Part shown: positions 45,704-63,993 of the stretch, piece after piece
Numbering within the stretch: the first letter of the stretch is position 1
How the letters are laid out: the number at the start of each line of letters is the position of its first letter
NCBI RefSeq assembly: GCF_016026235.1
Contig: NZ_CP065613.1
Origin: Escherichia coli
GTDB lineage: Bacteria > Pseudomonadota > Gammaproteobacteria > Enterobacterales > Enterobacteriaceae
Direction: 5' to 3' (one strand)
Length of the DNA: 64,000 nt
The notes under the pieces: model-generated
Database searches by the model: none
Told to the model about the DNA's origin: nothing
The model's input: only the letters and a program-made list of their open reading frames with translations
Made by a program: the position numbers and the translations under genes

Positions 45704-48700
45704 TCAGCTGATACTGATACCTGCTGTGGATTTCTTCATCACAACAACCAGCAAATCGCTGATACTTGCTGTGGGATACCAGCCATTTACCAGCCATGCC
45801 GATACAGAAAACTCCAGCGTCATGTGACCGTGACCGGCAGGCATATCAATAACACCCGTATATATCAGCGTATTATCCAGGGTCGTTCGGTTATAAATTT
45901 CAGCACCGTTTTTCTTCACTATCAGGCGGCATGACGAATAAATATTGTTATTCTTCCGCTCATGTTTAGCACCGCGAAACGCCACCGCGGGAATAACAAT
46001 TTGCCGATCAAACGGCTGATCGTCATAAACCCTGACGGTAATGGTCCCTGATGGCCACCTCTCCGGTGCACGGGAGTCCCGTGGGAAAGGTTTGCCCACT
46101 GTTTTAACGAGATCGCCTTCAATCTGGTTCGCGGACAATTTTCCCAGAACCCGACAGTTCTTATTAATCGTGACGTTGTTGAGCGTCCCGGAGTTCACGT
46201 TACCGCTGATATCGGCATTTTTCGCCGTCAGCCGTCCGCCAGGTGTCAGGGAAAATGCCGGAGGATTACCGCCGCTGGTAATGGTCGGAGCCGTCAGGCG
46301 TTTCAGGAACACGTCGTTCATGAATATCTGATCGCCCTGACCAACAAACATCGGCTTTGTGTTGCCATTCGCAGGATTAATCATCGCAATCCTGTCTGCC
46401 GCCAGCAGCACCTGACTCTGCATTCCTGCTGGCGTATTCTCAATACCGGCACCGATACCCGCAATATAAAGGCGTCCGTCCTTCATCTGTTGCAGCTTCA
46501 CAGCCCACATGCTGTTCAGGTTATTATTTGTATCAACCTGAACTTTCTGTATCTGCTGGATTGCAGCACTCTGATTTTCCAGTTTTTTATTGACGGTTTG
46601 CGTGATTTCATTGCTGACATTCGTAATGGACGTCCTGATTTCAGTCAGGTCCGGCGCAAGCTGACCGTTATCAATCTGCGTCCACAACTCCTTGCCGAGA
46701 TGCGTTTTATTGATCAACCCTTTATAAAAACTCAGATAACCTTCCGCATCATCGCTCGCCCGACCGACGGCCTCCACAAATGCCGATTTGCCAACGGTGT
46801 TCACACTGCGAACGTAAAAATAATAATCATGGCCCGGCCTGATATTGATACTGGCGGCTATCCAGTACAGCGCCGTGCCAAGATAGCGGGCGCTGGTTTC
46901 AACCTGCCTGATATCCGCAATCCGCTTTTCCGAAAACCAGAACTCAAACTGCACCGTCGGGTCATATACAGCCAGTTTCGGGACCGCCGTTATCTGAAAA
47001 TACCCCGGTATCAGTTCAATAGTGACAGGCGCTGCCGGTGCCGCAATCCGGAACGATACCGACGCCGGATCGCCCTGCTGCCCCGGGCATTTACCACCCG
47101 GACTGTCAGACTGTAATTCCCCAGCGCCAGCTGCCTGAAGCGGTATGTGGTTTCCGTCGTCCGGGCTGTGCTGACCAGCCGCTCACTGCCGTCGTCCGCT
47201 GCCACGGTCAGGCGAAGCAGGAAGCTCACTCCCTTCACCACCTTCGGCGTGTCCCATCGCGCCAGCACCTGATATTCCCCGCTGTCTGCGGTGACTTCGG
47301 CGGTCAGATGCTGCACCGCTGGCGGCGTGACACCATTCACCGTGCCGCGCCGGTCACCGTCAAAGTGTGCCCCGTTATCCACGATGGCCTCTTTTTCCGG
47401 CACATGCTGCACGGCGGTGATGGCATACGTGCCGTCGTCGTTCTCACGGATACTCACGCAGCGGAACAGGCGCTGGCGCAGCGTCGGCAGCTTCAGCCCC
47501 CACACGCTGTATTCTGCAACGCCGTCAGGAACCCGGCTCACTTTCACCTTCACGCCGTCGGTGACGGACTGAACCTCCACGCTGACCGGACTCCCCTGCC
47601 CGTCAACCAGGCTTATCAGCGTGGTGCCGGAAGATGGCAGCGTGATTTCACGGTCGAGCGTCAGCGTCCGGGTCTGGCTGTTTACCGCCAGCACGCGCCC
47701 GCCGGTGCTGATACCGGCATAGTCATCATCGCAGATTTCAATGACATCGCCCGGTACATGGCGAAGCCCTTCAGCACCCACGCTGAAGTCCACGGTCTGC
47801 GTTTCCAGCAGCTCCGTTTTAATCAGCCACAGCCCGGCGCGGTGTGCCTGCCCCCGACTGGTACAGCCAAAGGCATCCATCTTCGTGACATTACGACCGT
47901 AACGGGCAATGGCCTGCGTATCTTCAACAAGCTCTGTCGCCGTCTCCCAGCCGTTATCCGGGTCAATCCAGTTCACCTCAACGGCATTATGGCGGTCCTT
48001 CAGGGCGCTGAAGCTGTAGCGGAACGGCGCGCCATCATCCGGCATCACCACATTACTGCGGTTATAGGTCCACACCTTATCCGACGGTCGGTCCTGCACG
48101 AACGTCAGCGTCTGCCCGTTCCATACCGGCATACAGCGCATCGCCGAGCAGAAATCACTGAGCACATCCCACGCCTTGCGCTGTGTGGTCAGGTACGCAT
48201 TACAGGTGATGCGCGGCTCCGTGCCGCCAAAGCCGTCCGGCACCGACTGATCGCAATTCTGGCCGATGACATACAGCGCCCATTTATCCACATCCGCCGC
48301 ACCAAGACGTTTCCCCATGCCGTAGCGCGGGTGGGTCAGCATATCCCACAGACACCAGGCCATATTGTTGCTGTATGCTGGCTTAAACGTTCCGTCCCAG
48401 ATACCGCTGTATTGCCGCGTCTGCGGGTTATAGTTCGACGGCACCTGCAGAATGCGCCCGCGAAGATGATAATTGCGACTCACCTGCTGGTTACCGAACT
48501 GCTCTGAATCCACCTGCACGCCGACCAGCGCCGTGTTCGGGTAGCACTGTTTCACATCGATGATTTCGGTGTACGACGACCAGAGCGTTTTGTTCTGCAG
48601 CTGGTCTGTGGTGCTGTCCGGTGTCATCCTGCGCATCCGGATATTAAACGGGCGCGGCGGCAGGTTACCCACCACCACCGAGGCCAGATACTGCGAAGTG

Positions 48701-49176
48701 GTTTTGCCCTTAATGGTGATGTCTTTTTCCGTCACCCAGCCACCGTTACGCTGTATCTGAACCAGCAGGCGGACTTCCGACGGATTCCGGTCCCCCTTTG
48801 AGGTGGTTTCCACCAGTGCCTGCACACCGAAGGTCAGGCGCAGACGATCAATGTTTGCCGACGTGATGGTCCGGGTGATCGGCGTGTCGTATTTCACTTC
48901 CGTACCCAGCACCGTCTCGGAGCCGGAAGATTCAAACCCCTCCGGCGGTGTCTGCTCCTGCTCGCCGGCGCGGAACACCACCGTAACACCGGAAAAGTTT
49001 GTCTTCCCCTCGCTGTCCAGGACCGGCGTACCGTTCAGCAGCACGCTTTTTAATCCATCCACCGGACCGTCAACCGGCCCTTCGCTGATGGCATCAATCA
49101 CACTCAGCAACTGCGTGGATTTCAGGTTGTCCTTCGCTTCGCGCGGGGTATGCCCCTTACTGCTGCCTTTACCCAT
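45704..49176 (-). pseudogene. tail tip/host-specificity protein J, frameshifted
   Basis: ORFs 47011..49176 and 45704..46954 match the lambda J N- and C-terminal parts in different frames; shift maps to a G-run at ~47081-47087 (VNAWGQQGD expected). Confidence 0.6.
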
Positions 49177-61427: not shown

Positions 61428-63500
61428 GGGTTTTCTTCATCAGGCACCACTTTTTTTCGTTTCTTTTTTTAACGGACACGGATACCGGCTCCGGCGAGGC
61501 TGACAGTCCGGCATCGTCCCTGACACGCTCCAGCCAGGTTTCCCTGCATGCCCATTCCGGCGCATCCGGCCACTGAATTTTCTCGTAACCATGCAGAATG
61601 ACCAGAGCCTCGGCATACACCATCAGGTCAAAAGCTTCGTTGGCACCTCGACCCGGCTTACTCCATTTCCCGTCACTGCTCCGCTCTTCATACGTCAGTT
61701 CGTCGTAAAACCAGCTCCCCAGCCAGTCAGGGAAATGCACATAGCCGGGACCTGGCGAGTCACGCCATAACGCGTTATTCACCCGGTCTTTCAGGGCATC
61801 CGTCTGAAGAAGCCAGAGCGGCACATCACCTGCGGCCTGCGCCCGTCGGCCCGTTCGTCCGGTGTTATCAGGGAATGTACGGGTGATCAGTTTTGCGCGC
61901 CGGATGCTGTCGCCCTTAAACAGGTAAATACGTTTACCAAGGCCATCACGACGGCAACGACGCCAGAATTTATAGGCATTATCAGTGACCCCGTCTTCAC
62001 CGCCGGAGTCCACCGCCATTGCCATCAGTCGCATTTGTTGAGAAGGATCGGAGGCCAACGGCCAGCTTTTATGAAAAACATCCGTCAGCAGGACATCCCA
62101 GTCCTCAGGATAACCAGCAGGATCAATTCGCAGGCTTTCTCCGTTGTTGTCACAACGCAATGACTGCGTGATGTTGTAACGATCAATAATCCAGCGTTCG
62201 CCACGGCAACCATAACCCGTTACCTGAACCACAAAACGGCGATGACGTCCCGCCTGCACATCCACTGTCGCCGCCAGGAAATTAACACCATCCGGCACGC
62301 AGCGGGGAGGAACAGGCTCTGCCCGCTGCTCAAGCAGTTCACTTTTCGTTGCTCCATGCTGGCGCGGGGAAGATAAGGTAATCCCCAGTCGGTGTTGATA
62401 ACCGCCCTGAGTGTTTCTTCACTTCCGGTTGTCTCGTATTCCTGTTCTGCAGTAAGCAGTTTGTAAACGAGTTGCGAGAGTGTCTGGTAAGCAGCTGCCG
62501 GACCCTCCATCCAGAATGACGCAATACGTGAACGCCTGGGATCACCATAACGACTGCCATCCGCATTGATGGATTCACCATCCCGCAACCAGACCCCACG
62601 TCCGTTCAGCTCACGTTTTTGTTCAGGCATAATCCGTCCTGAACAGGAAGGACACTGAATATAAGCCGCCTCACTTGCCAGCACGGGATCGGCAATATCA
62701 CGGAAACCAGCAACCACATCGCCGCAGGGCTGAAAATACTCACCACAGTGTGGACAGGGCCAGTACCAGCGACGGCGATCGCCACGGTTATAGAGCGACA
62801 GTATCCCCGTGGTTGGTGGAGCCTCATGCGGTGAAGTCCGTCGCCATTTCACATCCTTCACATCCCTGCCGGGGGAACTCTCCACCAGCGTCATACCACT
62901 GGACATAAATGTTGTGGTACGTTTTGAGGCAAGAGAGAAAGCATCCCCCTCACCATCAATATCTTCCGGAAAACGGTCATAATCCGTCAGCGCGACGCAT
63001 TTATAATCTGATGAGGACATGATATTGACTGACGGCCAGCCGATTTTCAGGTAGTTGCCAGCAAGGAATGTTCTGTCATAAACGTTGTTGTCATTTTTGT
63101 TCGGACTCAGGCGACTGACCACTTCCGGGCTGACGCGAAACGTTCTGGCGAGTCGTTTTTTGGAGTGTTCGCGGGCTTTTTCCTCCGTCATCTGAATGAT
63201 CAGCATATCAGCAGGATCGCAAATCACGTTGTAAATCACCCAGCCGTCAATCAGGCCGATAGTCTTGCCGGTTCGTGCCGGGCCAACAAATATCACTGCG
63301 TCGTATTCACGCGAGGCCAGGCAGTTCATCGGCTCAATAACATACGGTGCCACCAGCGGATCCCACGGGACTGAGTTCCCTGCCCCCATGGGCACCCGCA
63401 TATACTGAGCAACGGCATCAGCAACCCGCATTCGTCTTGGTGCGCGAAGGATATAACCTGAATCGGTTCGTGCTGCCTTTGCGGTTTCCTGATTCAGCAT
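61420..63500 (-). pseudogene. terminase large subunit, frameshifted
   Basis: ORF 62220..63500 carries Walker A (VGPARTGKT); ORF 61420..62298 carries the nuclease half in another frame. Confidence 0.6.
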
Positions 63501-63993
63501 TACTCCTCCTGCTGTAATTCCTCCTCATCATCCGCACCTGCTTCAGTCACCCGCAGGGCTATCTGATCGCGCAGATCATCAATAATGGACTGAACACGGC
63601 TCACAGCGGCAGGCTGCAGACCGCAGTCACGTTCAAGAATATCCGGTAATGTCTCCAGCACCTGCACGACCGCTTTTGCCCAGATGGCAAACTCCCGTCT
63701 GACATCACTGGCCGGAATGAGTTGTGCCGTTTCCTGTTCGAACTTAAGACGCTCACGTTCAGACTGATACCAGGCTTTGCGCTCATGCGCGTCCATTTCG
63801 CCTTCTGCAACCGGCGGTGGTAATGCCAGAAATGCCGACACAATATCAACCACCCGATAAAGCTTGAGGTTGCTTTCATGCCCCCTGCAACGGGTAGATT
63901 TTGCAGCCTTGCCGCAGCAGTCTGGCGATGTACACCTGACAGTGCCGCCAGTTGACTGATATTCAGCGTCAGATTTTTTAACTCTCGATCCAT
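63500..63993 (-). pseudogene. terminase small subunit (Nu1-like), frameshifted
   Basis: ORF 63601..63993 has an N-terminal HTH-like region (LNISQLAALSGVHRQTAAARL); the remainder is in ORF 63500..63853 in another frame. Confidence 0.5.

Follow-up and report, generated by a model that had tools for sequence, protein, structure and literature searches.

The prophage and its morphogenesis module

The window analysed here is a stretch of 64,000 nt of Escherichia coli contig NZ_CP065613.1 (RefSeq assembly GCF_016026235.1), and it contains a lambdoid prophage that adjoins btsS. The morphogenesis module of this prophage occupies positions 45704-64000 on the minus strand, where the gene order is Nu1-like small terminase, TerL, W, portal, ClpP-protease/scaffold-capsid, head-tail connectors, Z, U, V, G/T, H, M, L, K, I and J. 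It is followed after J by lom, the tail fibre, tail-fibre assembly, ipaH, methyltransferase and dinI-like genes, and no insertion sequence (IS) elements are present between 45704 and 64000. An original prediction, made from the letters of this stretch, had described eight frameshifts in six of the structural genes and had read them as a cryptic prophage under decay with retention of host-beneficial cargo.

The module is of the mEp460/cdtI/Ayreon/Gifsy-2 type, which has a fusion of ClpP protease, scaffold and capsid. It shares the order of genes with phages mEp460, Ayreon and PhiR55_1, and its nucleotide identity to them is about 90-92%; unlike the window, these three phages have all of their open reading frames (ORFs) intact. 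The capsid fusion is one that we take to resemble that of Gifsy-2. E. coli FDAARGOS_943 carries, at the corresponding chromosomal site, a prophage (L001) that is 98.8% identical to the module, and all morphogenesis genes are annotated as intact in its record. Among the complete E. coli genomes of RefSeq, none was at least 99% identical across the module, and none across J.

Inventory of frame lesions

Every length difference in an alignment of the window to the intact L001 prophage was catalogued (Table 1). This gave a total of 11 frame-changing length differences across seven ORFs, ten of them one-base losses and one an 83-nt deletion. All of the one-base changes relative to L001 were losses (10/10, with no gains), and all ten lie in homopolymer runs of 4-8 nt. 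The probability of ten changes out of ten being losses by chance is P = 1e-3, that of all ten falling in runs of 4 or more is P = 9e-13 (by position alone), and that of all ten falling in 18.3 of the 64 kb is P = 4e-6. The head and tail-shaft part of the module contains nine of the ten, and the density of losses decreases away from the 64000 end of the window.

The six genes named in the original prediction are indeed split between reading frames on the minus strand, close to where it had placed the breaks. Its count of eight shifts in six genes was too low, as it left out the second loss in TerL, the third in Z, and the protease-capsid site altogether. In Z, for which two shifts had been proposed, the three losses fall within 55 nt and amount to a net change of -3, so that the frame is lost and then regained with a stop inside the shifted stretch. 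H does have two lesions, as proposed, but the first is the 83-nt deletion and not a simple shift. The break in J is the one-base loss in a G-run that had been described, and the lom, tail fibre, tail-fibre assembly, ipaH and dinI-like genes were likewise found to be full-length ORFs. The statement that the chromosomal backbone is free of frameshifts also held: against references of 99.9% identity, no frame-breaking 1-nt loss was found in the aligned parts of positions 1-39500.

Table 1. Prophage genes and regions in the window, with run-length changes given relative to the L001 prophage
Feature	Position in window	Strand	State
Small terminase, Nu1-like, DUF1441	63500..63993	minus	G6>G5, + strand run 63881-63885
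Large terminase TerL	61420..63500	minus	A5>A4 (62343-62346) and A8>A7 (61464-61470)
Portal	59687..61191	minus	C4>C3 at 60803-60805
ClpP-like protease/scaffold + major capsid	57683..59778	minus	A6>A5 at 58678-58682; read as 376/353 aa + 322 aa
Minor tail protein Z	56412..56993	minus	C4>C3 (56823-56825), C4>C3 (56780-56782), A5>A4 (56771-56774)
Tape measure protein H	51551..54508	minus	83-nt deletion (junction 53503-53509) and G6>G5 (51747-51751)
Tail tip protein J	45704..49176	minus	G5>G4 (47081-47084) and in-frame 6-nt deletion near 46193; outside exact repeat
Head + tail-shaft module, Nu1 to K	50100..64000	minus	0 substitutions vs L008; part of long exact repeat
Cargo + tail-fibre end	39490..45636	mixed	all intact; identical to L007, gap-free over 39000-45700
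lom	45037-45636	-	intact, 199 aa
Tail fibre	43561-45015	-	intact, 484 aa
Tail-fibre assembly	42987-43610	-	intact, 207 aa
ipaH	41164-42807	+	intact, 547 aa
Methyltransferase	40180-40848	+	intact, 222 aa
dinI-like	39490-39738	+	intact, 82 aa

Comparison with assembly GCA_900449985.1

An exact look-up of the window's truncated products matched three fragments, all in UG..01 whole-genome shotgun (WGS) assemblies, and led to two prophages in the sister assembly GCA_900449985.1. The UG..01 WGS records presumably belong to the NCTC3000 PacBio project. One of the two prophages (L007; UGFA01000005.1, 1-17063) lies at the same btsS-adjacent locus as that of the window, on a contig that starts within H at window position 54070. 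The other (L008; UGFA01000002.1, 650045-671151) is a second prophage copy in the same assembly.

L008 showed no substitutions relative to the window from 64000 to about 50100, a distance of 13.9 kb, yet it differed at 15 homopolymer gap sites. Nu1 (164 aa), TerL (700 aa), W (70 aa), portal (501 aa), Z (194 aa), U, V, G and T are all intact in L008, and TerL and portal have the same lengths in L001. L008 also has private homopolymer gains and losses of its own, at sites where window and L001 have the same run length. The absence of substitutions in 14 kb together with 15 differences in run length suggests noisy consensus calls of one sequence rather than diverged alleles. Downstream, L008 diverges from the window by 3-6% through J and lom.

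L007 had no mismatches to the window over 15,076 nt and six homopolymer gaps. In five of the six the window has the run length of L001. The sixth is the distal H run at 51751, where the window lacks one G; this run is G6, and in frame, in both L007 and L008. L007 reproduces the H deletion and the J loss and contradicts the distal H shift. The original prediction's own caveat of local errors is favoured over its reading, since the substitution-free L008 has Nu1, TerL, W, portal and Z intact in the stretch with nine losses.

In GCA_900449985.1 the two prophages were seen to share at least 14 kb of exact repeat, and the contig break inside the prophage at 54070 is what would be expected of an unresolved repeat. 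The two copies in that assembly have a substitution-identical head and tail-shaft module and the same 83-nt H deletion, and are 3-6% apart in J, lom and the tail fibre, which points to a duplication or gene conversion later than the deletion.

Recurrence of the short runs in other assemblies

The short-run states of the window were followed through the other prophage sequences available. The Nu1 run is G6 in L001, L002, L006, L008, L011 and L012; the G5 state is confined to the window and the indel-ridden assemblies L009 and L010. Both TerL states and the C3 state of the portal are unique to the window. Two of the three Z losses recur in L006, L009, L010 and L014, which are divergent and indel-ridden. 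Overall, several of the window's short runs recur only in divergent, indel-ridden assemblies (L006, L009, L010, L014, L020 and L021), and none was found in the clean contigs L011-L013 and L015-L018. Such homoplasy across divergent, error-prone assemblies fits systematic under-calling and not shared descent. In a collection of 15 billion proteins, where the source assembly itself is probably not indexed, there was no exact match to the N-terminal fragments of Nu1, TerL and portal, to the middle H fragment, or to the 78-aa W ORF.

Origin of the one-base losses

On these comparisons of sequence, we consider it probable, at roughly 0.85, that nearly all of the frame breaks are one-base under-calls in a long-read consensus, made within a long repeat, and are not decay; the finding would thus mostly reflect no real biological feature. 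We infer that the source is a long-read-based assembly. Its genome would, judging from the sister assembly, carry a second prophage that is identical to the one beside btsS over 14 kb or more. Reads may not have been uniquely placed in this repeat, or coverage may have been low near the contig end, leaving the consensus poorly polished, and poor polishing would in turn have caused homopolymer runs to be called one base short. The under-calls would be those in Nu1, TerL (two), portal, the protease-capsid A-run, Z (three) and the distal G-run of H, which makes no fewer than eight of the eleven lesions, and probably nine. The H deletion would most likely be a real slippage event that truncated the tape measure protein.

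Errors of this kind have been described. Residual long-read errors are mostly of homopolymer length and persist in repeats (PMC8812927), and errors in PacBio assemblies made by the hierarchical genome assembly process (HGAP) are mostly indels causing frameshifts (PMC5513972). The one-base lesions of the window have the same character: they are confined to homopolymers, fragment ORFs, and are concentrated in what is a long repeat in the sister assembly, the unique sequence being clean. The sister assemblies, too, differ only in run lengths. They differ from the mis-mapping of short reads that the Polypolish paper (PMC8812927) addresses, in that the short repeats IS1, IS4 and ISEc60 of the window are unaffected.

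A failure of short-read polishing in all repeats was considered and rejected, since the ORFs of IS1 and ISEc60 are intact and IS4 differs from its reference copy by substitutions only. With the short repeats clean, the failure would lie either in repeats that exceed the read length or near a contig end with low coverage. A mutator lineage deficient in mismatch repair was also rejected, because the 39-kb backbone is without a 1-nt loss.

Genuine pseudogenisation, in which a cryptic prophage beside btsS has accumulated real slippage frameshifts and selection has kept lom, the tail fibre and ipaH, is very unlikely. It would agree with frames that are truly broken in the window beside intact cargo and a clean backbone, with the widely reproduced truncations of related Shigella flexneri prophages, and with the finding of both the H deletion and the J loss again in L007. 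Neutral decay, however, should produce far more substitutions than indels, and here nine 1-nt losses were accompanied by no substitutions relative to L008 over 13.9 kb. Nonsense codons, gains, further large deletions and IS insertions were not seen in the module; every one-base change is a loss, three of them inside 55 nt of Z; the lesion at 51751 is missing from the same locus in L007; and the same runs are short in unrelated, error-prone assemblies. The H deletion is reproducible and the prophage may well be defective, so that part of the predicted decay stands, but widespread decay through eight lesions is unsupported.

Several observations weigh against under-calling as the explanation. 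L008 is the other physical copy, and shows the state of the twin and, strictly, not that of the btsS-adjacent copy, while the comparison with the same copy (L007) covers the window only below 54070 and none of 64000-54070. It is the direction, type and location of the lesions and the disagreement between sisters that are observed, and no site is thereby directly proven wrong. The homologue in S. flexneri has truly decayed: its truncated H product of 323 aa (P0033) is on 624 contigs, including some from Logan and ENA. This makes decay of the prophage family plausible in principle, and the idea of decay in the original prediction was a reasonable one. The J loss sits in non-repeat sequence where the window is otherwise free of errors, and it is shared by L007. 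Homopolymers are natural hotspots of slippage as well. It could be supposed that slippage specific to one copy, perhaps linked to replication or transcription of the region, inactivated the btsS-adjacent prophage without substitutions and left its twin intact, which we regard as most improbable.

The tape measure deletion and the J loss

Of the lesions in the module, only the 83-nt deletion in H is well supported. It is flanked by 7-nt direct repeats (GGGCAGT) and is common to the window, L007 and L008. The direct repeats and the presence of the deletion in three loci give it the form of a slippage deletion and not of a consensus error, and on this comparison it is probably real. Nine complete E. 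coli genomes with 100% identical flanks keep the 83 nt, and a scan of IMG/VR for the deletion junction gave 0 matches. The deletion divides the tape measure protein into a product of 368 aa and a remainder, which, if real, would alone be enough to make the phage defective, and the prophage may be defective for this reason. In S. flexneri, the frameshifts of the tape measure gene (P0033/P0034) differ from those of the window's H (53402-54508), and a variant in S. flexneri 2457T has the same out-of-frame H tail as the window by way of a separate lesion.

The J loss is less certain. It is common to the window and L007, two assemblies that are possibly not independent, and restoring one G gives an open ORF of 1157 aa with no further break in J. 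The short run was found in two contigs of the IMG/VR scan, L020 and L021; both are full of G- and C-run losses, with ipaH, lom and the tail fibre among the genes affected, and being so ridden with errors they are uninformative on whether the J lesion is real. It is about as likely to be a second genuine lesion as to be an under-call that recurs.

A mixed origin weighted towards biology was also considered, in which the H deletion and the J loss are real, and several of the head-gene losses are also real, being recent slippage specific to one of the two copies and later than the inactivation of H. The H deletion would have relaxed selection across the module, and the J loss appears in two assemblies whose errors differ in kind, with both gains and losses in L007 and L008 and losses only in the window. 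The lack of substitutions, the restriction to losses and the recurrence in error-prone assemblies nevertheless count against real losses in the head genes here as well. Moreover, the head genes of L008 are without these losses despite the same H deletion, so that in that copy relaxed selection was not by itself enough to produce them. We therefore regard the mixed origin as quite unlikely, and under-calling remains the preferred explanation for the head-gene losses.

The protease/scaffold-capsid A-run

The A-run at 58678-58682 has a different length in each of the three closest sequences, being A5 in the window, A6 in L001 and A7 in L008. A6, in the closest relatives, gives a fusion, which in L001 is a single protein of 686 aa. 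In L011, an otherwise intact prophage contig assembled from short reads (Logan; 6126-8152), there are instead split genes of 353 and 322 aa with an ATGA overlap. The split and fusion forms differ by one A in the run, and the exact 322-aa product is present in 43 blocks of the protein collection. It is possible that the two forms of the protease-capsid region are a natural polymorphism or a recoding site, and the A5 state of the window, even if real, may be harmless.

That the breaks of the module in general are natural recoding, either programmed frameshift sites or normal gene boundaries, is scarcely conceivable. The split arrangement of L011 is the kind of structure it would call for, and a programmed frameshift of the lambda type is established for G/T. 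In every clean relative, however, Nu1, TerL, portal, Z, H and J are each one continuous ORF, and the G/T site itself has no lesion; the state at 58678-58682 is the only one that could be a natural allele.

Relation to ipaH-carrying prophages

This prophage is in no way unusual for the ipaH-carrying lambdoid group of Shigella and enteroinvasive E. coli (EIEC). It shares with the defective prophages of this group, which lie beside btsS (yehU), both the insertion site and the gene order from J to dinI, and prophages with the same site and order were seen in the EIEC-like E. coli CFSAN029787 and FDAARGOS_943. It differs from them in that the H truncations of S. flexneri are well reproduced, whereas the reproducible lesions of the window are the H deletion only and possibly the J loss. 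Frameshift counts taken from one deposited assembly would wrongly present this prophage as one in extensive decay, and would overstate the number of pseudogenes in an ipaH-carrying, EIEC/Shigella-like genome. If the H deletion is confirmed, the outcome is a modest and familiar one, a lambdoid prophage that was disabled recently and has kept its ipaH effector gene.

Within ipaH, codons 7-9 (window 41182-41188) contain a poly-C tract. This is C7 in the window, L007 and L021, giving the in-frame protein of 547 aa. E. coli CFSAN029787 and FDAARGOS_943 instead have C6 and C9, respectively, and in both records ipaHe is annotated as frameshifted. The variation in this tract could be phase-variable slippage or a sequencing artefact.

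Length and substitution differences in the backbone

Three further loci of the backbone differ from reference sequences. A copy of IS4 (window 16262-17690) lies inside a WGR/DUF4132 gene, 260 nt from the insertion point in strain SCPM-O-B-7615. Relative to the copy in that strain it has 12 substitutions and no indels, and its transposase reads as 349 + 90 aa, apparently having been inactivated by a substitution. The His-rich repeat region of rcnA (window 4026-4054) is 24 nt shorter, in frame, than in a reference of 98.2% identity (L003). In yehI, the run at window 26811 is G6, as in the intact gene of CFSAN029787, and G5 in FDAARGOS_943, where the gene is annotated as frameshifted. As the window has the intact CFSAN029787 allele, the yehI lesion belongs to the reference FDAARGOS_943 and not to the window.

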